DNA of 64,000 nucleotides from IMG/VR virus record IMGVR_UViG_3300008108_003798; one strand, written 5' to 3'. The notes under the pieces were generated by a model. It ran no database searches. It saw nothing but the letters and a program-made list of their open reading frames with translations, and was not told where the DNA came from. The position numbers were made by a program, and so were the translations under genes. Of this stretch, positions 1 to 52,124 are shown one piece after another; position 1 is the stretch's first letter, and the number at the start of each line of letters is the position of its first letter. This stretch comes from a virus (Duplodnaviria; Caudoviricetes).

Positions 1-73
1 GACGACGGTAGTAACTATCAGCACCACCGCGATCGTAGGGTCCACCATGACGTCTATCGTTAGATTGAGACAT
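1..73 (-). CDS. partial conserved phage hypothetical protein (runs off window)
   Basis: ATG at 73 reads MSQSNDRRHGGPYDRGGADSYYRR, a motif I recognise from phage hypotheticals. Confidence 0.55.
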   Translation of the reverse strand, partial: MSQSNDRRHGGPYDRGGADSYYRR

Positions 74-99
74 TAGGTTATTCCTTTTCTATTTATGTA

Positions 100-291
100 T
101 CAGTGACGAACGAGATGAACGCGGCCAAGGAGCGTAGCAAGAGCGTATTCGATCGCCTCCATCGCCTGCGCCTTGGTAATGTTATTCGAGTCGTACTGTG
201 ACTCTGCGAGTTTAATCAGCTGAGCGAGTTCTTCATTAGTCATACCGCAGATTGCAGTTTTGACTTCTTCGAGGCTATTAAAGGTAGTCAT
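100..291 (-). CDS. hypothetical protein
   Basis: ORF track 100..330; likely start MTTFNS at 291. Confidence 0.5.
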   Translation of the reverse strand: MTTFNSLEEVKTAICGMTNEELAQLIKLAESQYDSNNITKAQAMEAIEYALATLLGRVHLVRH

Positions 292-362
292 TGTCGTGTT
301 CCTTTTGTTTCCTACAGATATAGAATACACTGATTCTAAACGAATGTAAATAGAAAAGTTGT

Positions 363-824
363 TTAGAAGTCCTCATCACCTTGGTATACGTTGAAAACAA
401 AGATACCTTCTTCACGCCACATACGAACAACTCGCGGACGATCGTCAAACACCATGTCAGGCTTACGGCCGTAGTCAGCAATGATCTCGTCAAGGATTTC
501 ACGCTTGACAATATCGTCACCACGGAAGTCGTCTGCCTTACGCATGTACAGTTTGGCAGTGTAGTTCCAAAAGCGGTTGTCCTGCAACCACTTCATAGTA
601 GCATCACGACTACGCTCGTTGCGTCCGCTTGCAAAGATGATTTCGTTACCAGCAGCCTTCAGCGAGTGAAATGCTTCTGCAACATATGGATTCACAGCAT
701 CGTTTGGAATACCAGCATCAAATGCCTTCCAGTTCTTTGGCTTGCTACGAACGTAGTCCAGCCGGTGTTCGATGTTAGCCAGTGTGCCGTCGATATCAAA
801 AACAACTAGCATTTTATCCCTCAT
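363..824 (-). CDS. HAD-family 3'-phosphatase (PseT/PNKP C-terminal domain-like)
   Basis: DIDGTLA motif I, SGR motif II, K..DD and FDDRPRVV motif, as in the T4 PNK phosphatase domain. Confidence 0.85.
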   Translation of the reverse strand: MRDKMLVVFDIDGTLANIEHRLDYVRSKPKNWKAFDAGIPNDAVNPYVAEAFHSLKAAGNEIIFASGRNERSRDATMKWLQDNRFWNYTAKLYMRKADDFRGDDIVKREILDEIIADYGRKPDMVFDDRPRVVRMWREEGIFVFNVYQGDEDF

Positions 825-971
825 TTTATTACCCTATGTGTGTTTATAGCATAAGGTAAACAGTGTGTCAACCTCAATGCCGATTCTTATCTTTGTTTTG
901 GTGGATTATTTCTTTAACTATCCACCAAAACAGTGGAATGTAAGCAACTATCATGGCAATACCGAGTGCCA

Positions 972-1286
972 TTATTCTACACGAACCTTGTTTTCGTTGG
1001 TAGGAACAAAGTCAAAAGTTTCCGGAGAACTCCAACGACCCATACCAAACAGGCCTGCAACGCTACCCCATTGGCCTACAAAGCCAGTGTACTTGCCTGA
1101 TTCATCGCGGCAAAGCAAATCTACCTGATTGATAGTAGAGTCACCATTGCCCGAACTAAATTCCCAAGACACAATCTCTTTGCAGGGCTTCGCTGGGTAA
1201 TAAATGGTTTCTGCTGAAACACCCGAATACATTAGAATCAGTGCCAGCGTAACAGCAACACGGTGAAGTTTGGTTTTCAGTTTCAT
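972..1286 (-). CDS. hypothetical secreted protein
   Basis: N-terminal signal-peptide-like segment, 104 aa. Confidence 0.55.
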   Translation of the reverse strand: MKLKTKLHRVAVTLALILMYSGVSAETIYYPAKPCKEIVSWEFSSGNGDSTINQVDLLCRDESGKYTGFVGQWGSVAGLFGMGRWSSPETFDFVPTNENKVRVE

Positions 1287-1345
1287 GTTAGTGCCTTTCT
1301 ATTGCCTATGTATTAATATACGACAGTTTAGGATTTTGTCAACTT

Positions 1346-1720
1346 CTATTTGTGCAGTGCAAATTGACGCATGTATTCCAGTTCTTCTTCTTTATAAACA
1401 AACACCCACATGCAGGTAACTTCACTACGAGTAAACACATCACCGTAGTAGTTGCGGTATGGATATGTAGGATCTGTAGTAAATCCCCAGTGTGCAACAT
1501 TCATTGAGATCTTGCTCATGACATCCATGGGCTCGTGCAAAACTAGTGTAGTACCGAAGTTGCGATCTTCACGCCATGCTATTACAGCATCACGAAATTC
1601 AAAAACGTCGGGAATCTGTGAGTCGAAGTCTGCCTGAGCATGGGCAGCCTGTGCCATAGCCTTACCTGGGTTCATATCCCACAGGTCGCGACGCATAACG
1701 ATGTAAAATCTTGGTTCCAT
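1346..1720 (-). CDS. peptidyl-tRNA hydrolase PTH2-like protein
   Basis: YIVMRRDL..MNPGKAMAQAAHA matches the PTH2 N-terminal signature; DPTYP near the second catalytic region. Confidence 0.7.
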   Translation of the reverse strand: MEPRFYIVMRRDLWDMNPGKAMAQAAHAQADFDSQIPDVFEFRDAVIAWREDRNFGTTLVLHEPMDVMSKISMNVAHWGFTTDPTYPYRNYYGDVFTRSEVTCMWVFVYKEEELEYMRQFALHK

Positions 1721-1779
1721 TTTGTCCTCAATAAAAAACCTACACTAACAATATACTGCTAGTGTAGGTGTTTGTCAAG

Positions 1780-2430
1780 TTAAAGTTCTACATCCACATA
1801 GTCAAGAATGCCAATACAATGGAAATGGGTACGTCCGTACTTGTACTGCATGGTTTTGTGCCAATGTCCAAAGTACCATTCTTCAGGCTGATGAATAGCC
1901 AACATACGTGTAAATGCAGCACTGGTACGGTTAGGATATTCGGGTCCTTTGAGCAAACCACTGTTGAAGAACATTTCTCGACTGACAGTGTTTGGACAAT
2001 CGTGTGTGATCATCACACGTGGCCGAACAGTGCTGTAAATGTCAATCATACGCTCTAGTTCTTCTTGGCTGAGTTCTTCCTCAGGCCACCAATCATAACC
2101 AGCAGTACGCTTGTACCAACCAGGAGGTGCATCGGGGTTATCAATGCTCCAAGCACCACCGATGAACATTACATCGTTTTCAACAGTACCGTCTTTGATC
2201 CAACCGCTCATCTCCTTACACTTAGAAGGATTGTCGTGGTTGCCACGGATAAAGCGATGATTGCCAGCAGTGTGATAGTCGTTGATGCTTTCGTGCCAGT
2301 AGTCACTTTGACCAAAACCTACACCGAAGTCGCCGATTTGGATTGTAGGACCTTCGAACCGGTCGATGGCATAGGTTTTATAATCGTTAACCAGTCCATG
2401 AATGTCGCCAATTAGTCTTGTCAGTGTCAT
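1780..2430 (-). CDS. calcineurin-like metallophosphoesterase
   Basis: GDIHG, GDFG, RGNHD, THDCP and FGHWH motifs. Confidence 0.9.
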   Translation of the reverse strand: MTLTRLIGDIHGLVNDYKTYAIDRFEGPTIQIGDFGVGFGQSDYWHESINDYHTAGNHRFIRGNHDNPSKCKEMSGWIKDGTVENDVMFIGGAWSIDNPDAPPGWYKRTAGYDWWPEEELSQEELERMIDIYSTVRPRVMITHDCPNTVSREMFFNSGLLKGPEYPNRTSAAFTRMLAIHQPEEWYFGHWHKTMQYKYGRTHFHCIGILDYVDVEL

Positions 2431-2440
2431 TTTTATGCCC

Positions 2441-2659
2441 TTATGCGGCTTTGCGTATTTTTTTTGATTTTGTTTCTTTTTTTACAAAATCGTCTCGTGT
2501 GATTAGTTCTGCATCAAGTTCAGGCAATGAAAAAATCATTGCTCTTGCAGTTTTATAATCAAATGCAGTATATGTTCCTCCACCACCAGTTTCGGCCTTT
2601 TCGCGCCACGAAACTAGAATTCGAGTAGGAATAGGTTTTAGATACTCTGACTTTTTCAT
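2441..2659 (-). CDS. hypothetical protein
   Basis: ORF with upstream GAGG, directly after tRNA-Arg. Confidence 0.5.
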   Translation of the reverse strand: MKKSEYLKPIPTRILVSWREKAETGGGGTYTAFDYKTARAMIFSLPELDAELITRDDFVKKETKSKKIRKAA

Positions 2660-2674
2660 TTCTTTCCTCTTGTA

Positions 2675-2750
2675 TGGAGCTCCCGGAAGGATTCGAACCC
2701 TCGACCACCACGTTCGAAGCGTGGCACTCTGACCGCTGAGTTACGGAAGC
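2675..2750 (-). tRNA. tRNA-Arg(TCG)
   Basis: Cloverleaf; anticodon arm CCACG-CT TCG AA-CGTGG; encoded CCA. Confidence 0.92.
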
Positions 2751-2762
2751 GTAGTATTTATT

Positions 2763-2838
2763 TGGTGCCCCCGGCAGGAGTCGAACCCACAACCTAGGGA
2801 GTAGAAATCCCTTGCTCTTCCAGTTGAGCTACGAAGGC
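2763..2838 (-). tRNA. tRNA-Arg(TCT)
   Basis: Anticodon arm AGGGA-TT TCT AC-TCCCT; encoded CCA. Confidence 0.9.
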
Positions 2839-2853
2839 TAAATTTCTGACAAC

Positions 2854-2927
2854 TGACAAAGTGCAAAGGGACTCGAACCCTTGTCTCCGACTCCACGCCG
2901 GCGTCCTATCCTCTAGACGATACACAC
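2854..2927 (-). pseudogene. degenerate tRNA (anticodon loop irregular; His/Pro-like)
   Basis: D arm GTCTAGAGGATAGGAC and T arm AAGGG-TTCGAGT-CCCTT are intact; anticodon loop is 5 nt (GTGGA), acceptor stem is broken and there is no CCA. Confidence 0.6.
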
Positions 2928-3045
2928 GATCATTGCAGCACTTTTCTATATCTCGACAACGACATCGAAGTTACTGCAACAAAAGGTCAGTTGCCACGGT
3001 GGTTGCCGCCACCTATTCTTTATCTCTTATTTATTTCTTGTGTAT

Positions 3046-3074
3046 ACTATACATGATCTTTTCACGCATGTCAA
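3046..3074 (-). promoter_or_regulatory. sigma70-type promoter for the distal tRNA-Arg genes
   Basis: TTGACA-17 nt-TATAGT. Confidence 0.75.
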
Positions 3075-3204
3075 CGCATATACAGCACCAGCAGCTTATA
3101 TGTTTAGTTTTCTTGCCACGCATGTTGACGTTTGCCGAGGCGGCGCGGTGGGGCGGGCCGATGATCTGCTGGAACAGTTTATCTCGAGAAACACTGAACT
3201 CAGC

Positions 3205-3723
3205 CTATTCTAATTCGTCTTCGAATGGGTATCTTCTCACTGCTAGCAATTTTCTAACAGGATATGCACTAAAGTTAACACTGTTATCTTGATTTCCACC
3301 AAGCACCAAATAGTATTCTTGACCATTGTGATAGGTTGAAGTTACAAAGAATCCAACATGACCTTTCCAATTGGCATTGCCACGCTTAAACACAACAACA
3401 TCACCTGATTCTGGTTCGTCTACTTCTACGCCCCAATCAAGAAAACTTCTTGCCAGTAGAGGATGTTCTGCATATTCATCAGACCCAGGTAATCCAGTTT
3501 CTGCAAGCACTGCATTTACAAATGCAGCACACCATTCAGTGGCAACTGGATCAACACCGATAAAATCTTTTATTTCTGCTCTATGACTCTTTTCACTCCA
3601 CCCTAGTTTTTCTGTTGCAGCAACCAATGGTTCTGGCGGTGTCGGTGAAGTAGTAAACAATTGAATTTTTGCACAAGCAGATACTGATAGTAACAGTACT
3701 GTTAGTAACATAGCCCTCATCAT
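3205..3723 (-). CDS. NlpC/P60-like (TIGR02594-type) peptidoglycan hydrolase, lipoprotein-like N-terminus
   Basis: WCAAFVN (catalytic Cys), GHVGF, LGGNQ; LSVSAC lipobox-like; TATAAATA at 3729-3736. Confidence 0.85.
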   Translation of the reverse strand: MMRAMLLTVLLLSVSACAKIQLFTTSPTPPEPLVAATEKLGWSEKSHRAEIKDFIGVDPVATEWCAAFVNAVLAETGLPGSDEYAEHPLLARSFLDWGVEVDEPESGDVVVFKRGNANWKGHVGFFVTSTYHNGQEYYLVLGGNQDNSVNFSAYPVRKLLAVRRYPFEDELE

Positions 3724-3771
3724 AAAAATATTTATAGAATAGGTCTAGATAGAAATAGTACAGTTTAACTT

Positions 3772-3847
3772 TGGCACTCCCGGCAGGACTCGAACCTGCA
3801 ACAATCACCTTCGTAGGGTGGCGCTCTTCCAGTTGAGCTACGGAAGT
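3772..3847 (-). tRNA. tRNA-Arg(ACG)
   Basis: Anticodon loop CT ACG AA; encoded CCA. Confidence 0.92.
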
Positions 3848-3853
3848 ATCGTT

Positions 3854-3928
3854 TGGTACCGTGTATAGGATTTGAACCTATTCCGACGCAGTCACAGTGC
3901 GGTATGCTACCCTTACACCAAGCACGGC
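3854..3928 (-). tRNA. tRNA-His(GTG), no G-1, A73
   Basis: Loop CT GTG AC; position -1 is T; discriminator is A. Confidence 0.88.
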
Positions 3929-3935
3929 ATTATTC

Positions 3936-4010
3936 TGGTTGCCCCTACTAGATTTGAACTAGTGACCTATCCCTTATCAGGGGATTGCTCTACCACTGAG
4001 CTAAGAGGCA
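3936..4010 (-). tRNA. tRNA-Ile(GAT)
   Basis: ATCCC-CT GAT AA-GGGAT; CCA. Confidence 0.92.
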
Positions 4011-4111
4011 ATATTCATTGTTTAGAAGATACACTGACCAATACCATTTCTGGTCCGATAGGTTTATTTTATGTGGCGGCCTAAATGCCACTCAGTGTAT
4101 CATCAAACCAA

Positions 4112-4187
4112 TGGTGAACCGGGTGGGATTCGAACCCACGTACTCCGATTAAAAGTCGGGTGCTAAAACCACCTCAGCTACCGGTCC
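4112..4187 (-). tRNA. tRNA-Lys(TTT)
   Basis: Loop CT TTT AA; CCA. Confidence 0.92.
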
Positions 4188-4246
4188 ACGTTTCGTTTGT
4201 CGCTTTCTTCTTTGTTACGTTTTCGTTTCATTTTTGTTCCTTGAAT

Positions 4247-4324
4247 TGGTGTACCGGGTGGGAGTTGAACCCACGACCTTCGGATTAAGAGTCCGCGGCT
4301 CTAACCTGGCTGAGCTACCGGTGC
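4247..4324 (-). tRNA. tRNA-Lys(CTT)
   Basis: Loop CT CTT AA; CCA. Confidence 0.9.
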
Positions 4325-4343
4325 ATTAATAGTTGTATGTTTG

Positions 4344-4787
4344 TTAGTTACACCACGACTGCTTTTTGTCGCCGTAGTATTCTCTAGCATAACCTTGTTC
4401 AATAAGCATCTGTGTTAGGCTCTTACCGTCGATAAGAACATCACCTAGCACTCTGCCGCCGAACTTGTCCCACTCATAAAATACAATTTGAGTAGTCTTG
4501 GCTTTTGCAACTAAATCTTTTGTAAATTTACTTGCAGCATCACCCATGTCGCCTTCTTTTTTACATTCTGCTCTGCCACCTTTTTCAGGTGTATCTACGC
4601 CCCATACACGAAGTGATAGTTTCTTCGGAAGTGGATCTAGCAAGAACTTTGCTTCAAATTCAACTGTATCACCATCTACTACACGTAGAATTTTTAAGTC
4701 GTGTGCTACACCAGTTGGCTTTTTTACTTCAGCAAATGCAGTGGATGCAGCAACAATCAGTGCTACAGTTAAAAGTATTTTTTTCAT
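4344..4787 (-). CDS. thermonuclease (SNase-like), secreted
   Basis: VVDGDT, LRVWGVDTPE, DKFGGRVLG, L..QGYA motifs; signal peptide; TATAAATA at 4810-4817. Confidence 0.9.
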   Translation of the reverse strand: MKKILLTVALIVAASTAFAEVKKPTGVAHDLKILRVVDGDTVEFEAKFLLDPLPKKLSLRVWGVDTPEKGGRAECKKEGDMGDAASKFTKDLVAKAKTTQIVFYEWDKFGGRVLGDVLIDGKSLTQMLIEQGYAREYYGDKKQSWCN

Positions 4788-4832
4788 TATGTTCTCCTAA
4801 ATACTAGAATATTTATAACAAAAAAACAATTA

Positions 4833-4908
<76 letters not shown>

Positions 4909-4914
4909 ATATTT

Positions 4915-4999
4915 TGGTGGGAGAGGAGGGAATCGAACCCGTCCGTGCGTTGCCGCGATGGAGTTACAGTCCACTGCCTCACCTTGAGGCGTCTCTCCC
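4915..4999 (-). tRNA. tRNA-Tyr(GTA)
   Basis: Loop CT GTA AC; long variable arm; CCA. Confidence 0.9.
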
Positions 5000-5005
5000 T
5001 TATTT

Positions 5006-5082
5006 TGGTAGGACATACGGGTTTCGAACCCGTTTCTCCGCCTTGAAAGGGCGGCGACCTTCGCCAAGAAGTCCAATGTCCC
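5006..5082 (-). tRNA. tRNA-Glu(TTC)
   Basis: CCGCC-CT TTC AA-GGCGG; CCA. Confidence 0.92.
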
Positions 5083-5088
5083 ATAGTT

Positions 5089-5163
5089 TGGTGATGTAGG
5101 CTGGATTCGAACCAGCAACCTACGGCGTATGAGACCGTTGCACTACCGTTGTGCTACCACATC
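5089..5163 (-). tRNA. tRNA(CAT): elongator Met or Ile2 (lysidine)
   Basis: Loop CT CAT AC; G1-C72 paired, so not an initiator; CCA. Confidence 0.85.
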
Positions 5164-5169
5164 ATTGTT

Positions 5170-5253
5170 TGGAGGTCGGTATGTGAATCGAACACATTAC
5201 TTTGCAGTGCTATGGAGTTGCAGTCCATCCCCTTACCATCCGGGCCACCGACC
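5170..5253 (-). tRNA. tRNA-Cys(GCA) with long variable arm
   Basis: Loop CT GCA AC; U73; 14-nt variable region containing ACT-GCAA-AGT hairpin; CCA. Confidence 0.82.
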
Positions 5254-5428
5254 AATTAGATCCGAGCCGGATTTACACCAATTCTGCTTGTGCATGTGAA
5301 AATAGAATTTGCTACGCTAGATTTTTACTCCGCCGTTACCACCAGTCGTTTCATCCTCAAGCACGCCCATTTGAGTTTGTTTATAGTGGTTACTCGCAGT
5401 CTCGTTCCGCATTTCCACTTTGATCATT

Positions 5429-5459
5429 AAAAAACCCTCCTACCTTTTGGGTGGAGGGT
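5429..5459 (-). terminator. intrinsic terminator of putative attenuator
   Basis: ACCCTCC-ACC-CAAAA-GGT-A-GGAGGGT followed by a T run. Confidence 0.8.
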
Positions 5460-5488
5460 GTTTCGGAAACTTGTGTATATACTACACG

Positions 5489-5581
5489 TTAGTTTCGCAA
5501 ACCCTCCGAGACGCCAAAGCGATACTCGCGGCATTTTTCAATGCTTCTAATCTCAAACATATGTTTAATAACGAGTTTCAT
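5489..5581 (-). CDS. putative attenuator leader peptide MKLVIKHMFEIRSIEKCREYRFGVSEGLRN
   Basis: 30-codon ORF between promoter and terminator; its 3' part carries GGAGGGT, complementary to the terminator 5' arm. Confidence 0.7.
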   Translation of the reverse strand: MKLVIKHMFEIRSIEKCREYRFGVSEGLRN

Positions 5582-5619
5582 AGTTCAGTGTCTTTCTTGT
5601 TTGTTTAACTTATATTGTA

Positions 5620-5648
5620 GTTATACTAGTTTATTTATCTCTTGTCAA
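5620..5648 (-). promoter_or_regulatory. sigma70-type promoter of the tRNA array
   Basis: TTGACA-17 nt-TATAAC. Confidence 0.85.
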
Positions 5649-5699
5649 CAACTTTTTTTCAGTTTTGAACAATTTTATTTATCTTTTTGTTTCAACAAC

Positions 5700-5924
5700 T
5701 TAGGGTGTAAACGGTTGATTGTCTTTCCACTTTTTGTAAAGTGAGTAAGCAAACCACACCGGGCCGCCGAGTACAAAAACAACAAAATTTAGTACAAATT
5801 CGATAATAAAGTTACCAGTTGAAAGAACATCTTTTGCTTCTCGCAAACTGTCTTCGCCTTTGAACCAATCATACACAAAATGTCCTACACCCGTAAGTGC
5901 CCACAACCAAATTAAAACTTCCAT
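5700..5924 (-). CDS. small membrane protein
   Basis: Two hydrophobic segments; abuts the decarboxylase stop codon. Confidence 0.6.
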   Translation of the reverse strand: MEVLIWLWALTGVGHFVYDWFKGEDSLREAKDVLSTGNFIIEFVLNFVVFVLGGPVWFAYSLYKKWKDNQPFTP

Positions 5925-7052
5925 TTATACTACCTTTACTTCTAGAGGCGGAAAGCCGTTAAATGCTATAGTGCTGTATGTGCTTGTGTAAGCACCGCAA
6001 CTGTTAATTACTAACACATCTCCACTCTCAATGTCAATTGGTAATTGTACTTTGTTTCTTTCATACATTACATCGGCACTATCACAGGTTGGACCAGCAA
6101 GTATACAAGGACCTGTTGGAGAATTTTCTTTGCCTAGCACAGTAAATTGATACTTGATTGCTTCGCCTTCTGTTTCTGCAAGACCACTAAATCTACCTAC
6201 GTTTAGGTATACCCAACGAACCACATCCATTGATGACTTCTTACTTGCCAACAATACTTCTGAGGCAATGCAACCTGCGCTGCCTACTAAGCCGCGACCA
6301 GGTTCTACCATAATGTAGTTGGCTCCTGGAAACTGCTTACGAACACGATCCATTAGTTTTTTGCCGTATTCTTCAGGAGGTGTAATTTCTACACCGTAGT
6401 AGGCAGGAAAGCCTCCGCCGATGTTTACCAGTGTAAGTTCGTAACCGCACTGAGAGATTTCGTCCCAAAGATTACCCATCAACTCTAGTGTGTCATACCA
6501 CATCTCAGGATGTTTGGTTTGCGAACCAATGTGCCAACTGATACCAACTGGTTCAAGTCCTAGTTCTTTTGCATAGCCCATAAGGCCTAATGCCATAGCA
6601 GGATCACAACCGAACTTGCGTGACAGTGGCCATTCTGCTTCGGTTTGCCCAATCAGCACACGAATAAACACACGTGAGTTGGGTGCATGACGTGCAATTT
6701 TTTCCAGTTCTTCTTCAGCATCTGCAGAAAACAATGTAATATCGTTTCTGTATGCGTATTCGATATCTTGCCAACGTTTTACAGTATTACCAAAACTAAT
6801 GTGTTCTGGTTCTGCACCGGCAGCAAGACACATTTCAATCTCACCCATACTAGCAGCATCAAATCTACAACCTAGTTCGACAAGACGTTGTAGAATAGCA
6901 GGATGCGGATTGCTCTTTACTGCATAATGCACATGAGCATCTGGCATACCTGCTTTTAGGTTTAGATAATTTTCTTCTACAAGATCAATGTCAAGAATCA
7001 GTGTCGGACGTTCGAATGTATTGTTGCGAATGTACTGATAAATTGCGTCCAC
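5925..7052 (-). CDS. ornithine/lysine decarboxylase (PLP, alanine-racemase fold)
   Basis: YAVKSNP (PLP Lys), FDAAS.GE, SRKFG, HIGSQ, NIGGGFP, EPGR, GPTCDSAD, GAYT. Confidence 0.92.
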   Translation of the reverse strand: MDAIYQYIRNNTFERPTLILDIDLVEENYLNLKAGMPDAHVHYAVKSNPHPAILQRLVELGCRFDAASMGEIEMCLAAGAEPEHISFGNTVKRWQDIEYAYRNDITLFSADAEEELEKIARHAPNSRVFIRVLIGQTEAEWPLSRKFGCDPAMALGLMGYAKELGLEPVGISWHIGSQTKHPEMWYDTLELMGNLWDEISQCGYELTLVNIGGGFPAYYGVEITPPEEYGKKLMDRVRKQFPGANYIMVEPGRGLVGSAGCIASEVLLASKKSSMDVVRWVYLNVGRFSGLAETEGEAIKYQFTVLGKENSPTGPCILAGPTCDSADVMYERNKVQLPIDIESGDVLVINSCGAYTSTYSTIAFNGFPPLEVKVV

Positions 7053-7246
7053 TAATCTCTCCTAAAATCTACTACGTTTTCGTCTTTGGTTTTTACAATA
7101 GAAAGTGCTGGTTTTTCTACCTGCTTGATCGGTTCAACGCCGGAAAAAAACTTTACATCTTCTCCCGACAGTTTACGTTCTATACGATCGAGGCGCATTA
7201 AAACTTCGTCCATCATGGCGATCAGTGTATCGACTTTGTAACTCAT
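7052..7246 (-). CDS. hypothetical protein
   Basis: Overlap-coupled to the decarboxylase start. Confidence 0.55.
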   Translation of the reverse strand: MSYKVDTLIAMMDEVLMRLDRIERKLSGEDVKFFSGVEPIKQVEKPALSIVKTKDENVVDFRRD

Positions 7247-7261
7247 AATTTTGAGACCTTG

Positions 7262-7783
7262 TTAGCGGAAAGTAATTTGAATACGTTGACCAACTTTGTA
7301 ACGACGATCTGTCATTACAGAGCCAACATGATCGCCGTAGCGATAATAAACAATGTAGCCATCTACTACCTGTTCATCCTGATACTCGGTATGATACTTG
7401 CACTGAACTTCGGTACGATATCCTACCACTGCTTGACGATTGCCTTGGCGACCTGCTACATCAGCACCAACAATAGCGCCAAGTACAGTCATAGCATCTT
7501 TACCAGAACCGCCGCCAAATTGATTACCAATTGCACCGCCAATTAGCGCACCAGCAAGAACGTCACCAGTGCTTCCACCTTGTACACGACCATATACCGG
7601 CACTTCCACATCGTAGCAGTATTCTACTTCGACAGGATGCGAAATATAGGTATAGTTTGTAATGACTTCGGTAACACGAGCATTAACTGTTTCAGCAGTT
7701 GCTGAAGATGCAGTGGCAATAAGAGCAGCAGAAAGAAGTAGTGTTTTCATGATAGCCTCGCTTTCGATATATTTATACAGCAA
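7262..7783 (-). CDS. glycine-zipper 2TM domain protein (17 kDa antigen-like)
   Basis: Signal peptide; GALIGGAIGNQFGGGSGK...GAIVGA. Confidence 0.8.
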   Translation of the reverse strand: MLYKYIESEAIMKTLLLSAALIATASSATAETVNARVTEVITNYTYISHPVEVEYCYDVEVPVYGRVQGGSTGDVLAGALIGGAIGNQFGGGSGKDAMTVLGAIVGADVAGRQGNRQAVVGYRTEVQCKYHTEYQDEQVVDGYIVYYRYGDHVGSVMTDRRYKVGQRIQITFR

Positions 7784-7806
7784 GTCTAAAGCATTGTCAA
7801 GAGAAA

Positions 7807-8313
7807 TTATCTCTTGGTTCCAGTAAGTTGAATAGCGTATCTATCGTGCATACTTAGATTGTAAACAGCATGTGGATCATCGCTGTCCCACTGTATCCAA
7901 TCACCTGCACACCACTCGCCAAATGTTTTTCCGCAGGCCTGCGATACCTGTCCCGGCTGGCTGTCTTCAAGCATGATGATAATACGAGTAACTTCTTCGT
8001 TGTTGAGTTTGTTGACTTGCTTGTATCTGCCAAACAAATCAACGTGCATAGGAAGATACTGTCCGGGCTTGAACAAGTTAATTGCTATTGCAATATGATC
8101 CAAATGATCAAATGCAGGAATGATATAATTGTCAACAGACTCGGGCATAGGATTTGGTTGGAAATAGTTCCACAGAGTCATATACATTTTGCTATGCCCG
8201 TGGCTGGCATACTCATTGAGTAATCTGTCGTCCTTGTGTGTATCGAACTTGTAATTGAGAGTTTTAAAGTCCTCAATATTCCAATTTGGTTCGATATGTC
8301 CGGTGTTAAGCAT
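7807..8313 (-). CDS. cupin/2OG-Fe(II) oxygenase-like protein
   Basis: PMHVD (HxD) and distal PHAVYN His; TATAAATA upstream. Confidence 0.55.
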   Translation of the reverse strand: MLNTGHIEPNWNIEDFKTLNYKFDTHKDDRLLNEYASHGHSKMYMTLWNYFQPNPMPESVDNYIIPAFDHLDHIAIAINLFKPGQYLPMHVDLFGRYKQVNKLNNEEVTRIIIMLEDSQPGQVSQACGKTFGEWCAGDWIQWDSDDPHAVYNLSMHDRYAIQLTGTKR

Positions 8314-8329
8314 TTCAATCTCCTTCGGT

Positions 8330-8740
8330 TTATTTATAAGTTAATTCCGCTAGGAGTTTGTAATTTTCCCATGCTTTTTTAGCAGCTAGGTTTGTTTCTA
8401 GATTCTCAGGTGTTAACATTACATCATACCAGTAGTGATTCATACGAGGCGGATGAGCACCATACTGTCGCGGTTGATGCATCTTCCCTTCGTTTTTCAA
8501 ACTAATACAAATATCACGAACAGCCTGTTCATCCTCTGCAGGAATGTTGCTCCATTCGGGCTGACTGTACATACTTCCAAGACCATTACCGCCAGCATAA
8601 CCTTCCCAAATACCAGTCCATTGTTTGTCGTCTTCTGGATCAAAATCTGTACGGGCGATGACTACTAATACTTCATCAATGTGTACAGTGTCTTCGTAAA
8701 TATCCTTTACGCAACGGCTAAGACTGGTTCCGATTTTCAT
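8330..8740 (-). CDS. conserved phage hypothetical protein
   Basis: MKIGTSLSRCVKDI N-terminus; coupled ORF chain. Confidence 0.65.
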   Translation of the reverse strand: MKIGTSLSRCVKDIYEDTVHIDEVLVVIARTDFDPEDDKQWTGIWEGYAGGNGLGSMYSQPEWSNIPAEDEQAVRDICISLKNEGKMHQPRQYGAHPPRMNHYWYDVMLTPENLETNLAAKKAWENYKLLAELTYK

Positions 8741-8979
8741 TTACGTTTCTCCAATTGATAGTTAAGGACAAAGTTTTCTACAAGTAGTTTTGTAATAGTT
8801 GCCATAGCAACAGTCAGCATGTCGCTGTCGTTGATGTCGTTAAACTGCTCTACAACACTGTTAGCCATCAAGCGATAAGCCGCAGACTCTTCAATTGGCA
8901 ACATACCCCAATCAATAGGGTCTTTGAATTCTGCTTCTTGTGCTAGATCTGCAAGTTGTTCAACTGTTAATTTTGACAA
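8737..8979 (-). CDS. hypothetical protein
   Basis: ATGA overlap with downstream gene. Confidence 0.6.
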   Translation of the reverse strand: MSKLTVEQLADLAQEAEFKDPIDWGMLPIEESAAYRLMANSVVEQFNDINDSDMLTVAMATITKLLVENFVLNYQLEKRK

Positions 8980-9682
8980 TTTTATAATCCGGTGTTAATC
9001 TATAATGTAATGCGTCGTGAGCAGGATGCTTGTTATACGCAACAGTGGCTTCGATCTCGATACTACGTCCAGCAGCAATCAAGTAGTCCCACACAGGAAT
9101 TGCTGGACTATAAGACTCCAAGTTTAGTACCATAAGGTGATTGTGACGATCTTTAAAGTAGTAACGCCACATGTTTTCACGCTTTGCAGTTCTGTGTACT
9201 TTACCTACAAACTCAATTTCGCCGGCAAAGTAACCAGGGATACTATGCGGATTGATTGATTGTACATTTTTAAAAATCTCAACAGTAGCAACACTCTCGT
9301 CATGAAAGCCAGGAAGTGTGATCAGCGGAGCCAGCCATTCTTTTTTGATCTTACGTGGCGAGTACAGTGCTTGATCAACAGTTTTCATCCACTCGCTCAT
9401 GTGTTGATTTTTAAGTCTACGTAACATGAAATTGTTTTGAAAGTGTTTACGAACTTGATCAGCACGTTCATATGATTCTGAAGAAATTTCAAAATTTGCT
9501 GGGTAATTTCCACTCAAGATGTTTGTGTAAATTTCAGTGCCGTATGTGGTTTTTGAAAGTTGAACAACAGCCGCAAGAGTATCGTACGGAGTATCCACAG
9601 GGTCTGTTTCAATTTTTTTGACAGTCTCAAAGTCGTCAACGGAAAATACCACGTTAAAGGGTTGTGCTATATTCATGTCCAA
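8960..9682 (-). CDS. hypothetical protein
   Basis: 240-aa ORF in coupled chain. Confidence 0.65.
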   Translation of the reverse strand: MDMNIAQPFNVVFSVDDFETVKKIETDPVDTPYDTLAAVVQLSKTTYGTEIYTNILSGNYPANFEISSESYERADQVRKHFQNNFMLRRLKNQHMSEWMKTVDQALYSPRKIKKEWLAPLITLPGFHDESVATVEIFKNVQSINPHSIPGYFAGEIEFVGKVHRTAKRENMWRYYFKDRHNHLMVLNLESYSPAIPVWDYLIAAGRSIEIEATVAYNKHPAHDALHYRLTPDYKIVKINS

Positions 9683-10482
9683 AGACTCGCTCTAATTTTA
9701 ATAAGACGGATCAGCATTTCGGTATCTTCGTCCTCGTAAGCCTTTTCCATTTCACGCATCGTGTCGTGCATTTTTGCAGTATCCCACTTGTCTGCTTCGG
9801 GATCTTCGTCGAGTAGGTCGATGCCACGTTCACGCTGATTGTCACAGTAGTTGCTCCAACCGCTTGCATCCATAGGTTCGGGACGATTAGGATATACTTC
9901 AGTCCACCAACGGTAAAGTGCAACAATCTCTTGTGCAGTTTCTGCTTGGTAAGTGGGTTTTGCTTGGCTTTTATCGTCAATCCATTCTTCGTCAGTAAGA
10001 GTCATTTCCCACGCAAGATGAGCAAGTCCTGCTTCGGCACTGCGCCAAGTTCTAGTGCGCCAACGACCTACTTGCCACCAACGCATATCTTTGGATTTTT
10101 CTTCACTCCAGCGATAGCCGCTATATGCTTTTTCGATTTCAACAAAGTCTACAAGTTCATCAAACAGGCAGTAAAGTATACGTGTATCCATATCACGATA
10201 CTCACCAGGCTTAATGTGCTTAGGATGAGCAACAAGTGCGTGAGTTTGATCAATCCAACGATTTACAATGTAATACTTTACACTGTATAAACGATCGGTA
10301 GGCCAGCAAACAAAGTTTTGCAGTTTATCCAGACCTTCTTCGGCAATCCAATAACGGATAGGATGTGATGCACGAGCAAGATTTTTCCACTGCTTCCAAC
10401 CCGGGCTGGTTTCGAAGTTGGGTTTAGCAGTGCCGCGAAGCCAATCGGCAAAACGGCTGCAACTCCAGTAATTAGATCTCAT
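9673..10482 (-). CDS. Trp-rich conserved phage hypothetical protein
   Basis: 269-aa ORF; ends MLIRLIKIRASLWT. Confidence 0.7.
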   Translation of the reverse strand: MRSNYWSCSRFADWLRGTAKPNFETSPGWKQWKNLARASHPIRYWIAEEGLDKLQNFVCWPTDRLYSVKYYIVNRWIDQTHALVAHPKHIKPGEYRDMDTRILYCLFDELVDFVEIEKAYSGYRWSEEKSKDMRWWQVGRWRTRTWRSAEAGLAHLAWEMTLTDEEWIDDKSQAKPTYQAETAQEIVALYRWWTEVYPNRPEPMDASGWSNYCDNQRERGIDLLDEDPEADKWDTAKMHDTMREMEKAYEDEDTEMLIRLIKIRASLWT

Positions 10483-10708
10483 CTTCTTTGTACTCTTTTC
10501 GATTTTTGCTATAGTTTACAGTTGCGTTCCAGAACCCGATCAATCCATGACACGCAATAGCAAGGAAAGTTGAAAAAATTTGAACTGCTCCAATGATCAG
10601 AACAGCAATAAGTGCAGTCATAATCAAGTCAACTTCGTGTGCAGTATTATAATACGCTAGACCGAATATAATAGCGTAGAATCCCAAATCCCAGAGATGC
10701 TTTTTCAT
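10472..10708 (-). CDS. small membrane protein
   Basis: Two hydrophobic helices. Confidence 0.55.
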   Translation of the reverse strand: MKKHLWDLGFYAIIFGLAYYNTAHEVDLIMTALIAVLIIGAVQIFSTFLAIACHGLIGFWNATVNYSKNRKEYKEDEI

Positions 10709-11058
10709 TTTGCTTCCTTTTTAGCACGATAGTCGGCTTTGAACTGTTTTACGTCAGTGACTGCACTGGTAAGTGCGGCTGCATAGTTAATTGCAGTCTG
10801 CTCATCCAGCACAATAGTAGTATCCATTTCGGCATAGCCTTTGATGAGAATTTGCCAAATTTGCTGCCAGCGGTTCATTTTCCACCATTTAGTATGGTTC
10901 TTTGCATAGATATGAACACTAACATCAACTTCGTCTGCTTCTACATTCAGTTCATGTGAGCAATCATCATTGCCGCAACTGCAACGAATATGATACCATT
11001 TGCTATCACCCCACTCGCTGGTTTTTAAAATACCCTGTGCAGGTTGTTGTGCGTTCAT
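10705..11058 (-). CDS. hypothetical protein with CxC..C..H motif
   Basis: Likely start MNAQQP at 11058 with GAGGAG upstream. Confidence 0.6.
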   Translation of the reverse strand: MNAQQPAQGILKTSEWGDSKWYHIRCSCGNDDCSHELNVEADEVDVSVHIYAKNHTKWWKMNRWQQIWQILIKGYAEMDTTIVLDEQTAINYAAALTSAVTDVKQFKADYRAKKEAK

Positions 11059-11068
11059 AATCTTCTCC

Positions 11069-11275
11069 TCAATGAATTGTATTATAGTTGGATTCGTCGT
11101 TAGGGTCAAGTCCAAAATACTCAATACACATTCTTGCAATAGTGTTTGGTACTTCTTTTAAATGTTCTTCGCCGCGTGGAACCCATATACCTTTGAGACT
11201 GCCGTCTTTGCCAACAACCAACCCATAGTCATCGTCTTCTAGTGTTTCGCTCAGTTCTAAATAATCATGCCTCAT
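11069..11275 (-). CDS. hypothetical protein
   Basis: ORF track; RBS upstream. Confidence 0.55.
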   Translation of the reverse strand: MRHDYLELSETLEDDDYGLVVGKDGSLKGIWVPRGEEHLKEVPNTIARMCIEYFGLDPNDESNYNTIH

Positions 11276-11759
11276 TGCTCTCGCCTTTTAGAGTCTCTAA
11301 CATACGGTATTTGTCCAGTTGACAATGATACTCGTCTGCCGCAGATTTTAGTTTAGGATATTTGGTTTCTAGATCAAAGTCTCTGTTGATTACAACTTTT
11401 AGACTCTTGCTTATTTCGTCAAGAGATTTTTGATACTGAAGAATAGGATCTAGTTTTTCACGCTCAATGTCATCGATCTTAACATAGTGTTGGCTTTGAC
11501 TAGGATGATAACTATCCTTAGGAACAACGCCGGCATCAATCCAGTTGGCTCGGGCCTTTTCTATGCCTTCGTGATCGACGTGTATATAGGGTCTGTCGTC
11601 ACTAAACTTGCGTTCGCCACAGTTGCATTTGTAAAACCGTATCTGCCAATGCTTGGTTTTTTTGGTATCAGTATAAGTTGTATGATACTTGTCGTTGACT
11701 GCTACTAGTTCCCAATCATGCTCGTGCCGCGGAGCAAAAAGTCGTGCAATAAAGTTCAT
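11265..11759 (-). CDS. hypothetical protein
   Basis: 164-aa ORF in coupled chain. Confidence 0.6.
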   Translation of the reverse strand: MNFIARLFAPRHEHDWELVAVNDKYHTTYTDTKKTKHWQIRFYKCNCGERKFSDDRPYIHVDHEGIEKARANWIDAGVVPKDSYHPSQSQHYVKIDDIEREKLDPILQYQKSLDEISKSLKVVINRDFDLETKYPKLKSAADEYHCQLDKYRMLETLKGESNEA

Positions 11760-12010
11760 CGTTTACCCTGATAACGTAGATCAAAAATTTTATCTCTTAC
11801 ACGATTATTATACCAATTACGGTCTTGCTTGTCAAGCAGTGTAAGTAGATATTCAAGATCTTCGTCGCTTAACGCCACATCAACTGCGGATTCTGCTAAC
11901 ACAGTATAACCTCGGTTTTTTAATTCTTCCACTATTTCGTTGTCGTCGAACTCATCGAGATCTACGTCAACGTCTACATATGTTTCAATTGTTTTAACAG
12001 CCATTTTCAA
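11756..12010 (-). CDS. hypothetical acidic protein
   Basis: Coupled to tilS end. Confidence 0.55.
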   Translation of the reverse strand: MKMAVKTIETYVDVDVDLDEFDDNEIVEELKNRGYTVLAESAVDVALSDEDLEYLLTLLDKQDRNWYNNRVRDKIFDLRYQGKR

Positions 12011-18763: not shown

Positions 18764-19003
18764 ATGATTTGGATAGATTATAATATAACTCAAGCCGGCG
18801 GCAATTTTAGAGTCGAAGGTGAATGGCCTGGAGAAGTTATGGGGCTCGACAGACAGGGCAATCCCGGAAACAAGAAACGTCCGTTGTATCAACCCGGTGA
18901 TGTTTTTATAGTTAACAAGGATGGGTGGCTTGTTAAACAAGAAGAATTGACATCACTGATGTTAACATATGAGAGTAAAAAATCTACTTTGTCAGGGCAA
19001 TAA
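18764..19003 (+). CDS. hypothetical protein
   Basis: 79-aa ORF converging on the cyclase. Confidence 0.6.
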   Translation: MIWIDYNITQAGGNFRVEGEWPGEVMGLDRQGNPGNKKRPLYQPGDVFIVNKDGWLVKQEELTSLMLTYESKKSTLSGQ

Positions 19004-21026
19004 ACACGCCATTCCAATCTGCTGGCAATGTTTGCGTTTTCATGTATTCACAACGTTCAATCCACATATCGTAGTATTTTTCCATTTTGCCGTCAAATGC
19101 TCTGCGAATTAAATTACACTGTTCTATTGCTTCATCAAACTGTTTCATACGATATAGTTTGTGCATTTGATCATGATGTTTTTTACTGGTTTTCCATGTT
19201 GGTTTAACATCGTCTAATACAGTATAGATAGCAACACCTACAGTTTTACCTTTAACTGCTAAGTCATCTACTTTGAGGAAGAAGAATTCGTCTTTGCACT
19301 GTTCTACTGTAGCGCCACCCACGAGTAATAAGCAGCCGTATTCTTTACATTTTGATTCGATTCTTGCGGCGGTGCTGACTGCGTCTCCAAGTACGTCGTA
19401 ACTGTGACGTTTGGTTGACCCCATTTCTCCGATGTATCCGAGACCTGTGTTGATTCCGGCGCCCATGCCAACTGGTGGTCTTCCTTGGGGTATGATGACT
19501 GTTTCATTAAAATTCTCTACTGCTCGTAACATTTTTAAACCAGTAGCAACTGCTGTCTTTGCATGTTCAGGATCGTCTACTGGTGCATTGTGTATATGCA
19601 TACTTGCATCACCGATATATTTAATAATCATACCGTTTGCATCTAGCACAGGCTGTGTGATAGCATCCATGTATCCATTCATTATTTTAGTAAGTCCTGC
19701 AACATCGTCGCCGAAACTTTCACCTAATGGTGTAAAGCCACGTAAATCGCTAAACAGTATGCTTACTTCTTTCTTCATGCCTTTCTTGACAAGATCTGGG
19801 TTTGTTTGCAATAACTTAACTACGGCAGGTGATGCATATCCTTCGAACTGTTTCTTGATTGCTTGCTTTTGTAAGAACTCACTTACAAATTTGATTACAT
19901 AACGTATAATACCTACAAGCAATAGAAACGCCGCAGGTAAAAATCCATCAATCAAGAAGTTGTAGGTAGCAAAGGCATAGATGCTACCACCGATTGACCC
20001 ACCTACAAGTATTACAAAAATGCCAATGCCCGCATAAGTCCAACGTGCAGCAACTATTAGTGCTAATCCGGCAAGTACAAATGCTAATAATTCGGCACCT
20101 GGTGACCATGCAGGGCGTTCTATGTTACTTGCATTAAACACTGTGCCTAACATCATAGCCTGTAGTTCATGTGGCCACACGCCGCCTTTGGCTGTTGCAA
20201 TTGGTTGTGTAATGCCAGCCGCAGTAGGACCTACAAATACTATACCTCCGGCAAAGTCTGCAGGTAGTTCTGCTGCACTGTGACTGCTAAAGCCTTGACT
20301 CCAGTCTAACCATACTCTACCAAGTCCATCAGTTTGTAGTACACCGTATTGCGGAATTCGTAATTTGTCAACTCCCAACGGTGATAATTTGATTTGGAAA
20401 CTAGGATCCCCTGCTAGAACTCTAAGCACTTCCATAGTAACGTTAGGGTATAGTATTCCTCCACTTTCTAGTACTAGCGGAGCACGTCTGACAACTCCAT
20501 CAATTTCTGGAAAGGTATTGATAATTCCTGACCCAACTGCTGCATTTTCAATGGCAGGCACGTTTGCTGTGATGCCAGGCACGGCAGGGATAAGATCAAT
20601 AAAGTCACTATTAATGATACTAGCACCAGGGTTGATTGGTTCATTTTTATTTTCCTCAGTTCCTAACATTGTAACTACAACAGGATAATTACCCATAGTA
20701 GTTGATAGTATCCTGTCTTGTCCTGCTCTGTCTGTTTCGCTCATCAACACGTTAAACACAACTAGTCCTGCGCCACGTGCATATAGATCCTCTATTAGTT
20801 TAGCATAATCGCCTCTTGGCCAAGGCCACTGACCGCGAGCAGTAATACTTGCTTCATCTATATTAACTGTATAAATGTTATTTTCTACAGGTGCTTGATT
20901 TACTATCAACTGATCAAAATATCGTAAACGTAGACTTTCCAAAAAATCAGGGTTACTGAACTGTAACCAGCCCAACAACCCTAAAATTACAATGCTCCAA
21001 ACAGGTGATAATAACAGTTTTTTCAC
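18984..21026 (-). CDS. CHASE2-domain class III adenylate cyclase
   Basis: N-terminal TM, CHASE2 (V.IDE.S....GQWPWPR), 3 TMs, FSDLRGFT, IKYIGDA, YDVLGDAVSTAARIES. Confidence 0.92.
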   Translation of the reverse strand: MKKLLLSPVWSIVILGLLGWLQFSNPDFLESLRLRYFDQLIVNQAPVENNIYTVNIDEASITARGQWPWPRGDYAKLIEDLYARGAGLVVFNVLMSETDRAGQDRILSTTMGNYPVVVTMLGTEENKNEPINPGASIINSDFIDLIPAVPGITANVPAIENAAVGSGIINTFPEIDGVVRRAPLVLESGGILYPNVTMEVLRVLAGDPSFQIKLSPLGVDKLRIPQYGVLQTDGLGRVWLDWSQGFSSHSAAELPADFAGGIVFVGPTAAGITQPIATAKGGVWPHELQAMMLGTVFNASNIERPAWSPGAELLAFVLAGLALIVAARWTYAGIGIFVILVGGSIGGSIYAFATYNFLIDGFLPAAFLLLVGIIRYVIKFVSEFLQKQAIKKQFEGYASPAVVKLLQTNPDLVKKGMKKEVSILFSDLRGFTPLGESFGDDVAGLTKIMNGYMDAITQPVLDANGMIIKYIGDASMHIHNAPVDDPEHAKTAVATGLKMLRAVENFNETVIIPQGRPPVGMGAGINTGLGYIGEMGSTKRHSYDVLGDAVSTAARIESKCKEYGCLLLVGGATVEQCKDEFFFLKVDDLAVKGKTVGVAIYTVLDDVKPTWKTSKKHHDQMHKLYRMKQFDEAIEQCNLIRRAFDGKMEKYYDMWIERCEYMKTQTLPADWNGVFIALTK

Positions 21027-40730: not shown

Positions 40731-40761
40731 TCGGCGGCGTCCATCTGGGCTATTTGAGTGC

Positions 40762-40953
40762 TTACCATGTTTTTTTGCTCCATGCTTCTTCGAACCCGTC
40801 TTCGTGAACAACGTTTTCATGATTACCCCAGATACGTTCAAAGTAACCGTTGTACACACTCATGATGTCTTTTTCACTCCATGCATCTGGAATCAGGTGT
40901 CCTTTGACAATCCAATAATATCTATTGGCTTCTTTGTGTTCGTATGCTGTCAC
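40762..40953 (-). CDS. hypothetical protein
   Basis: YYWIVKGHLIPDAW; phage-like codon usage. Confidence 0.6.
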   Translation of the reverse strand: MTAYEHKEANRYYWIVKGHLIPDAWSEKDIMSVYNGYFERIWGNHENVVHEDGFEEAWSKKTW

Positions 40954-51661: not shown

Positions 51662-51692
51662 AGTTGGGTTTCCTATAATGCTTTATTTTTAT

Positions 51693-52124
51693 TTATCTAA
51701 TGTCGGAAAGAATGAACCCGTCTAGAACACGTTTTGCATTATCGATCTTGTCTGTGGATATCTCCAGCAGAGATTCCATTGCCACACGTCGTGGATGGTT
51801 TTCTGTGGTTTCAATAATATGATTATAAAATTGACTATCGTTATAGTTTTTCTCTATCACTCGATCGTAGTGCATTAATCCACGCCAGGGCTTTGATTTA
51901 GCATATGCCTTTGCAACTGCAACGGCACCGATCTTACTAAAGGTTGTAGTAACAGTTTTGTTGTTTTTTGTATCAACCAAAATGTACCCATGCGTTTTGC
52001 TAGGTCTAATAAGAATACTGTCAATACGAATAGTATTACCTTTGTGTTCTGGTATTAAGTAATCTTTGATTTTAAATTCTATAAGATTTTCTAGTTCTGA
52101 AACAGCCTGTTCAAGATTTTTCAT
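51693..52124 (-). CDS. hypothetical protein
   Basis: ORF track. Confidence 0.6.
   Translation of the reverse strand: MKNLEQAVSELENLIEFKIKDYLIPEHKGNTIRIDSILIRPSKTHGYILVDTKNNKTVTTTFSKIGAVAVAKAYAKSKPWRGLMHYDRVIEKNYNDSQFYNHIIETTENHPRRVAMESLLEISTDKIDNAKRVLDGFILSDIR

Follow-up and report, generated by a model that had tools for sequence, protein, structure and literature searches.

The stretch analysed here, 64,000 nucleotides (nt) of a Caudoviricetes virus (IMG/VR record IMGVR_UViG_3300008108_003798; the window), carries on its minus strand an array of transfer RNA (tRNA) genes preceded by a compact cassette in which a promoter, a 30-codon leader open reading frame (ORF) and an intrinsic terminator follow one another. 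The promoter, leader, GGAGGGT element and terminator were found, base for base, where a first-pass annotation had placed them, and the features of cassette and array are as follows.

5620..5648, minus strand: sigma-70-like promoter, TTGACA (5648-5643), 17-nt spacer, TATAAC (5625-5620), read directly
5591..5598, minus strand: weak purine-rich ribosome-binding site (RBS) of the leader, AAGAAAGA, 10-17 nt 5' of the start codon, read directly
5489..5581, minus strand: leader ORF, 30 codons plus TAA; ATG at 5581, TAA ending at 5489
5516..5578, minus strand: sensor codons 2-22; three each for Lys, Ile, Glu and Arg, two for Phe, one each for His, Met, Cys and Tyr, and three non-array codons
5501..5507, minus strand: segment 2, GGAGGGT, within codons 25-27, ending 9 nt before the stop codon
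5466..5496, minus strand: inner helices of the antiterminator, GAAACT/AGTTTC and GTGTA/TACAC; nested hairpin
5429..5459, minus strand: intrinsic terminator, ACCCTCCACC, CAAAA loop, GGTAGGAGGGT, six T
5459-5453, 5441-5434 and 5434-5429, minus strand: terminator parts, namely segment 3 (ACCCTCC), segment 4 (AGGAGGGT) and the T6 tract
From 5253, minus strand: tRNA array, first part; Cys, Met, Glu, Tyr and Phe, then an SNase-like ORF (4787-4344)
Minus strand: tRNA array, middle; Lys(CTT), Lys(TTT), Ile, His and Arg(ACG), then a CHAP ORF (3723-3205)
To 2675, minus strand: tRNA array, distal end; Pro, Arg(TCT) and Arg(TCG)

The array (2675-5253) holds 13 tRNAs for 10 amino acids (Lys twice, Arg three times), one more than the 12 first reported, a list that omitted Pro(TGG) at 2858-2927. 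Default ARAGORN also finds 12, missing the class-II tRNA at 4919-4999 that was found by Rfam, by folding and by aragorn -ps90, and whose fold shows a GUA anticodon, identifying it as tRNA-Tyr. We put at roughly 0.8 the probability that this cassette, as its sequence suggests, is a ribosome-mediated leader-peptide transcription attenuator gating read-through from the 5648 promoter into the phage tRNA array.

Analysis of the leader showed that most of its codons name amino acids of the array, 21 of 30 overall and 17 of the 18 in codons 5-22, with Arg written as AGA, CGC and CGA, just as had been counted before. The ten array amino acids account for 40.6% of residues in the 46 long ORFs of the window; against this background, the match of the sensor (18 of 23 codons) has a binomial P of 2.7e-4 and that of codons 5-22 a P of 2.5e-6. 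Only one of the 212 small ATG-initiated ORFs of 25-45 codons in the window covers at least nine of the ten array amino acids, and nucleotide-shuffled versions of the window sensor gave a mean match of 0.43 compared with the 0.78 observed (P 0.0005). The leader's promoter was skipped by a consensus scanner solely owing to the final C of TATAAC; its -35 TTGAC is present in all five nearest relatives, with -10-like hexamers readable in L085, L011, L130 and L019.

Both conformers of the cassette folded as had been proposed. The terminator hairpin, 176 nt 5' of tRNA-Cys, folds alone at -15.8 kcal/mol, and the nascent RNA spanning segments 2 and 3 forms a single long stem that pairs GGAGGGU with ACCCUCC (-23.7 kcal/mol, z score -5.65). 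The AAACT/AGTTT and GTGTA/TACAC arms, previously described as flanking extensions of the antiterminator, do belong to it, as inner helices of a single long stem-loop that stack on the segment 2:3 pairing; they possibly also form a pause hairpin. When segment 4 was included, the minimum-energy fold became the terminator plus the inner hairpin, at -29.3 kcal/mol. This set of folds is the behaviour expected of an attenuator, with the antiterminator predicted to form first if segment 2 is free and the terminator predicted to form if segment 2 is masked. The window contains a single occurrence of the three-segment pattern, with none expected (none in 100 shuffles), and a covariance-model search of the 64-kilobase (kb) window revealed no cassette beyond this one. 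An Rfam cmscan of window positions 1-12000 with E values up to 1 returned only tRNAs and chance-level matches, with no leader family or T-box; the match over 5428-5493, to nse_sRNA, scored 27 bits compared with a gathering score of 75.

The geometry resembles that of the trp and his attenuators, as first suggested, in having a leader ORF, cognate codons, a terminator and an overlapping antiterminator; the resemblance ends at the 1:2 hairpin, since the cassette has three segments. No anti-antiterminator (segment 1) was found, the duplex between leader body and segment 2 having -6.1 kcal/mol compared with -6.8 kcal/mol for shuffled sequence, so read-through is expected when the leader is wholly untranslated, unlike the super-attenuation of trp and his. 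Since the stop codon begins 9 nt after segment 2, a ribosome whose A site is occupied by that codon would, given the established size of the bacterial ribosome footprint, cover segment 2. In addition, segment 2 is Shine-Dalgarno-like and would lie at Shine-Dalgarno distance from the P site of a ribosome at the stop codon, so that the anti-Shine-Dalgarno sequence could hold it.

Comparison of the leader regions of the window and three relatives with 50,697 phage records by blastn yielded nothing beyond tRNA parts, and no cultured carrier phage was identified. The decarboxylase gene adjoining the cassette has IMG/VR relatives, one of which, L003, carries a homologous cassette whose leader names quite different amino acids, the same as those of its own tRNAs (Asn, Met, Pro, Trp, Asp, Ala, Val, Ser, Gly and Thr). 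Public contigs were scanned with a pattern consisting of GGAGGGT, 25-55 nt, ACCCTCC, 5-20 nt and GGAGGGTTTT, which returned 24 viral loci, at least 118 metagenome loci and 88 genome loci. Among the matches listed, 68 have two or more same-strand tRNAs within 3 kb downstream, and a short-leader-ORF filter reduced these to 35 distinct leaders. All 35 have an ATG-initiated ORF in the same frame, whose stop codon ends 19 nt (24 leaders), 22 nt (10) or 28 nt (1) from the first G of segment 2, whereas a stop at +19 or +22 was found in just 6 of 101 pattern matches lacking tRNAs. Their RBSs (AAGAAAG, AGGAAAG, AGAGGA or AAGGA) lie at a distance comparable to that in the window. The seven core pairs are kept in the nascent fold of 34 of 34 distinct relatives, 32 distinct upper terminator stems keep a mean of 3.6 extra pairs, and the inner region is structured in relatives of unrelated sequence (z score below -2 in 22 of 34). 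What is conserved across groups is the amino-acid sets and the nucleotide core, and not the leader peptide sequences.

A proposed test was whether leader codons follow array content in related phages, and across about 35 distinct relatives they co-vary. Using one representative for each of 17 unrelated leader groups, the mean fraction of sensor codons naming an amino acid of their own array was 0.72, compared with 0.54 +/- 0.035 for permuted arrays (reached in 0 of 200,000 permutations), even though many arrays are cut by contig ends, which lowers this forward match. The phi coefficient for presence and absence was 0.36 compared with 0.07 +/- 0.06 for permuted arrays, and the fraction of array amino acids present in the leader was 0.93 compared with 0.74 +/- 0.035 in the control (0 of 100,000). 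Base composition was rejected as the cause of the match, nucleotide-shuffled leaders of the 17 groups giving a mean of 0.50 +/- 0.02 (0 of 2000 reaching the observed value). The match extends to codons, 105 of 152 informative codons in the 17 representatives being readable by an anticodon of their own array compared with 85.5 expected from synonymous usage (P 3e-4). Among single cases L066:914-1006:+ is the clearest; its leader consists almost entirely of Ser, Leu and Tyr codons, and its tRNAs are four for Leu, one for Tyr and one for Ser.

Contrasts within one genome remove codon usage and relatedness as explanations. In L114, three successive cassettes with leaders at L114:2369-2440, 3552-3617 and 4636-4722 are each followed by their own tRNA block, and the sensor codons whose amino acid occurs in each block are distributed as follows.

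L114 cassette 1 leader: block 1, 13/16; block 2, 4/16; block 3, 0/16
L114 cassette 2 leader: block 1, 1/12; block 2, 12/12; block 3, 0/12
L114 cassette 3 leader: block 1, 2/23; block 2, 7/23; block 3, 15/23

Even the choice of Arg codon follows the block in L114, with CGC before Arg(ACG) in cassette 1 and AGA before Arg(TCT) in cassette 2. Similarly, G001, a 330-kb contig that is 93% complete and encodes a decarboxylase protein 80% identical to that of the window, has two cassettes with own-versus-other counts of 19/23 versus 5/23 and 21/22 versus 5/22.

The position of the matching codons is informative as well. For 18 cassettes with complete arrays, aligned on the codon entering segment 2, the share of codons that specify an amino acid of the array is 83-100% at most positions between -20 and -3, with two dips (0.79 and 0.67); it is 67% at -2, 33-50% at -1 and 0, and 33-61% in the tail except for the fixed Glu codon of segment 2. 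The end of the matching codons about two codons before segment 2 can be explained by the fact that a ribosome stalled any closer would itself mask segment 2.

The search pattern fixed all three segments, so conservation of the segments among its matches proves nothing, and we therefore consider separately the evidence from cassettes found in other ways. An exact 6-mer search for other cores found none adjoining tRNAs; a fold-based scanner subsequently found cassettes with variant cores. With GGAGGGT/ACCCTCC, four different cores now share the same architecture and stop spacing, the three variants and their antiterminator energies being:

GGCTCCGGGTC/GACCCCGGAGCC/CCGGGG: antiterminator -28.0 kcal/mol
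GACTGGGA/TCCCCGTC/GATGGGGA: antiterminator -13.6 kcal/mol
GGGCC/GGCCCC/GGGGC: antiterminator -20.2 kcal/mol

One variant-core leader, L360:154-243 in G005, has 22 of 22 sensor codons naming amino acids of its own 20-tRNA array (read by eye). A second sample came from a terminator-only scan (ACCCTCC, gap, GGAGGGTTTTTT), which did not select for segment 2 and returned at least 116 viral loci, of which 104 were analysed. Among the matches listed, 10 precede tRNA arrays, and segment 2 with at most one mismatch is present in 6 of these 10 compared with 1 of 93 others (Fisher 1e-6); upstream duplex energies are likewise stronger for the tRNA-proximal terminators (Mann-Whitney 1e-4). In several of these ten, the pairing is longer or displaced, and the changes on the two sides match. 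Thus the three segments co-vary.

From the folds, the conserved stop spacing and the co-variation of leader with array, we infer coupling to a translating ribosome and a direction for the switch, as follows. RNA polymerase would transcribe the 30-codon leader with a ribosome behind it. If every sensor codon is decoded fast, the ribosome would arrive at the TAA and cover segment 2 (GGAGGGT), segment 3 would pair with segment 4, and the resulting terminator would end transcription at 5429. If a tRNA is scarce, the ribosome would stall at an upstream Lys, Ile, His, Met, Phe, Glu, Arg, Cys or Tyr codon, leaving segment 2 free to pair with segment 3 on its emergence; the long antiterminator stem would form in place of the terminator and the tRNA genes would be transcribed. 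The leader would thereby act as an any-of-nine OR gate on tRNA availability, with the released tRNAs closing a negative feedback loop, and absence of translation would likewise give read-through. This large, uncultured freshwater phage would probably make its array tRNAs only when ribosomes read the leader codons slowly. Taken together, a leader that samples many amino acids of its array, within a three-segment attenuator of tRNA genes, is probably a real and probably unpublished form of leader-peptide attenuation.

Several observations weigh against this attenuator model or limit its reach. Most relatives were found with the fixed-core pattern, and co-variation of the core is carried by the three variant cassettes and the terminator-only sample. 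The RBS of the window's leader is weak, a caveat already raised in the first-pass annotation that stands (AAGAAAGA, 10-17 nt 5' of the start). Each amino acid has only 1-3 scattered codons in the leader, where classical attenuators use runs, so sensitivity to partial depletion is uncertain. Pro(TGG), at 2858-2927, is the sole array amino acid lacking a leader codon. The sigma-70-like promoter inside the array (3074-3046) means that the three distal tRNAs are not under the attenuator alone, and promoter-like sites between terminator and tRNAs in L008, L009, L045 and L128 suggest that attenuation may control just part of expression in some relatives. Finally, the third tRNA cluster of G001, Leu(TAA)-Met(CAT)-Arg(TCT) (L361, G001:221900-223400, minus strand), has no cassette and lies directly 3' of a TTGACA, 17 nt, TATAAA promoter; the Leu(TAA)-Met-Arg(TCT) tRNAs, which serve AT-rich codons, seem from this arrangement to be made constitutively. 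A comparable Leu-Met-Arg cluster lies 5' of the cassette in L007, L015 and L018.

Further features in and around the cassette and array are the following.

3046..3074, minus strand: internal sigma-70-like promoter, TTGACA, 17 nt, TATAGT (11/12 matches), ahead of Pro, Arg(TCT) and Arg(TCG)
5283..5428, minus strand: conserved structured spacer of about 145 nt from terminator to tRNA-Cys, overlapping a 36-codon ORF (5427-5317)
5639-5630, minus strand: GATAAATAAA motif, second copy, inside the promoter spacer
5674..5683, minus strand: GATAAATAAA motif, upstream copy

The internal promoter had been assigned to the two distal Arg tRNAs; its existence was confirmed and its reach extends to Pro, making three tRNAs. 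The GATAAATAAA motif occurs three times in the window, with 0.29 copies expected, at 5630-5639, 5674-5683 and 51688-51697 (minus strand), two of these flanking the leader promoter, and most of the 32 listed relatives carry its core ATAAATAAA 5' of the leader, often in tandem. These sequences may represent a second promoter class or a regulator site; GATAAATAAA resembles the T4 late-promoter box, TATAAATA. Another motif, CTCTTTGACAATTTAG, is repeated in L005, L009, L030 and L045, immediately ahead of the first tRNA or following internal promoters, in each case 3' of terminators. The first gene of the array, tRNA-Cys (5170-5253, minus strand), has a GCA anticodon, U73 and an unusually long variable arm like that of a class-II tRNA.

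The spacer between terminator and tRNA-Cys bears on whether the switch acts on transcription at all. Its sequence (5283-5428) is near-identical in nucleotides in L085, L019, L038 and L016 despite their differing leaders, contains two hairpins with compensatory pairs and has no Rfam match; it is probably an RNA element, either a processing signal or a non-coding RNA, co-transcribed with the tRNAs. A protein-coding role for the 36-codon ORF within it (5427-5317) is disfavoured, nucleotides being conserved without synonymous change and L019 lacking the ATG. A conserved structured element at this position, together with the extra promoters 3' of the terminator in some relatives, would suit an alternative in which the leader and its alternative structures act post-transcriptionally, ribosome position steering processing by RNase E or RNase P, or tRNA-precursor stability, rather than termination. 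We consider this alternative unlikely, as every member has a canonical hairpin with a T6 tract, the alternating segment is exactly the 5' arm of the terminator, and in several relatives the first tRNA lies within about 25 nt of the T tract, without a spacer. Termination controlled by the leader remains the reading we prefer.

The same switch (GGAGGGT / ACCCTCC / GGAGGGT plus a T tract) was also observed after a short ORF 48-190 nt 5' of rtcB, the gene of an RNA-repair and tRNA ligase, in 17 of the pattern matches listed. These comprise 16 bacterial genome contigs and one metagenome contig (L115), with at least five unrelated leader ORFs and Pfam RtcB matches at E about 1e-125, from Hyphococcus, Hyphomonas, Marinicaulis, Kiloniellaceae, Pelagibius, Denitrobaculum and several metagenome-assembled genomes of unclassified Alphaproteobacteria or Pseudomonadota, those named being Alphaproteobacteria (L164:3909-4140, minus strand; L215:2893-2981, plus strand; L147, L149, L165, L167, L176, L188, L196, L210, L213, L214, L217, L222, L223, L228 and L115). 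RtcB religates cleaved tRNAs, and the rtcB-linked switch therefore looks like a bacterial counterpart of the phage cassette that serves repair, not replacement. The rtcB-linked element is probably, as far as its sequence can tell, a leader-peptide attenuator inducing tRNA repair, and such elements lend indirect support to tRNA-damage sensing by these leaders.

The leaders of the rtcB-linked elements have a mixed amino-acid content, which together with the lack of an anti-antiterminator, and hence read-through predicted upon total loss of translation, would be consistent with another kind of translation-dependent switch, its logic reversed or otherwise different, such as a general sensor of translation competence to which codon identity is secondary. 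This possibility appears less likely again than control at the level of processing, in that a codon-blind sensor leaves unexplained both the mirroring of each cassette's own block within a single genome and the match at the level of codons.

The stretch occurs in runs of 18 studies, including lake and other freshwater metagenomes. Metatranscriptome contigs, which carry no information on RNA ends, strand or level and in which parts lacking cover mean nothing, contain sequences identical to 5437-5558 in one estuary run and, in three further runs, sequences covering tRNA Glu-Met-Cys. Although small ORFs abound in phage genomes, the unit has its own promoter and terminator, and the contigs identical to 5437-5558 come from an RNA library, an ordinary small gene or RNA beside the tRNAs (a 30-amino-acid micro-protein, or a trans-acting RNA with an anti-Shine-Dalgarno-like ACCCUCC) whose amino-acid resemblance to the array is incidental is the least likely explanation, given that the groups share amino-acid sets and the nucleotide core but no peptide sequence, and that chance falls far short of explaining either the link to tRNA arrays or the match of leaders to their own arrays. 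Elsewhere, on the minus strand, the window encodes unusual phage cargo: a molybdopterin oxidoreductase of 1002 amino acids of the NuoG or formate-dehydrogenase type (37851-40859), a CHASE2-adenylate/guanylate cyclase (18984-21026), a class I ribonucleotide reductase (45077-47383) and a protein of 1116 amino acids with two glycosyltransferase domains and an FkbM methyltransferase domain (60379-63729).

To our knowledge, how phages regulate their own tRNA genes is largely unknown, and it is debated whether these tRNAs make up for a mismatch in codon usage, for breakdown of the host's translation machinery or for defences that cleave tRNAs. A leader that reads decoding speed at the codons of the downstream tRNAs would be a demand-driven supply circuit, which makes the purpose of phage tRNAs testable by asking which tRNA depletions open the switch. 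As trigger of the proposed attenuator, host anticodon nucleases, host shut-off, starvation and simple feedback on phage tRNA supply would all fit, and feedback on that supply, in a host of different codon usage, fits equally well as anticodon nucleases or starvation. At odds a little better than even, we suggest more broadly that large freshwater phages practise modular sensing of tRNA availability, with a codon-mirrored attenuator for each tRNA block replacing the tRNAs whose decoding has slowed, for example once host anticodon nucleases have cut them or the host has been shut off, and that with the rtcB sister elements, mostly of Alphaproteobacteria, these cassettes form an unrecognised class of decoding-stress attenuators, leading to tRNA replacement in phages or repair in bacteria. 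The sister elements suggest that bacteria use the same switch to induce tRNA repair. Each cassette is a compact module of about 220 nt, and such units could be used as natural reporters of how available a specific tRNA is.

Comparison of the cassette with published systems revealed partial parallels. In Pseudomonas phages 201phi2-1 and PAK_P3, short RNAs derived from 5'-untranslated regions arise by premature termination immediately 5' of a tRNA (PMC11512511). These RNAs show experimentally that transcription can stop early just 5' of a tRNA gene in a phage; the paper puts forward neither a leader peptide nor any codon logic (PMC11512511), and no codon-matched leader ORF was found upstream of tRNA-Tyr and tRNA-Gln of PAK_P3. 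Full-text searches of the literature yielded no account of tRNA genes, or of rtcB, under leader-peptide control. T-box riboswitches likewise sense tRNA status and switch between terminator and antiterminator 5' of genes serving tRNA charging. In contrast to the cassette, with its conserved ORF, a T-box binds uncharged tRNA directly, via a specifier codon and the T-box sequence, without translation.

The E. coli pheST attenuator, in which a leader peptide with Phe codons controls phenylalanyl-tRNA synthetase, likewise applies leader-peptide attenuation to a component of the decoding apparatus and not to amino-acid synthesis. It is cellular, controls a synthetase gene and responds to one amino acid, whereas the genes controlled here would be phage tRNA genes and the amino acids many. 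Closest in design are the leaders of ilvGMEDA, ilvBN and thr (and also trpL, hisL, pheL and leuL), which likewise place a short ORF rich in regulatory codons close to the promoter and carry an intrinsic terminator; in the ilv and thr type an antiterminator likewise shares the 5' arm of the terminator, the position of the translating ribosome decides between the folds and two or more amino acids are sensed. The cassette differs from these in having three segments, with no 1:2 anti-antiterminator and no super-attenuation expected, where trp and his have segments 1:2, and in its sensor, which samples as many as 9-15 amino acids, each through 1-4 scattered codons in place of the runs of classical attenuators. 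It would extend leader-peptide attenuation to tRNA genes as output, with a many-amino-acid OR-gate sensor, the output of the enterobacterial amino-acid operons being biosynthetic enzymes. Unlike in the ilv and thr type, the only possible signal would be the supply or charging of tRNA as the ribosome reads it, a signal on which the product would feed back directly.

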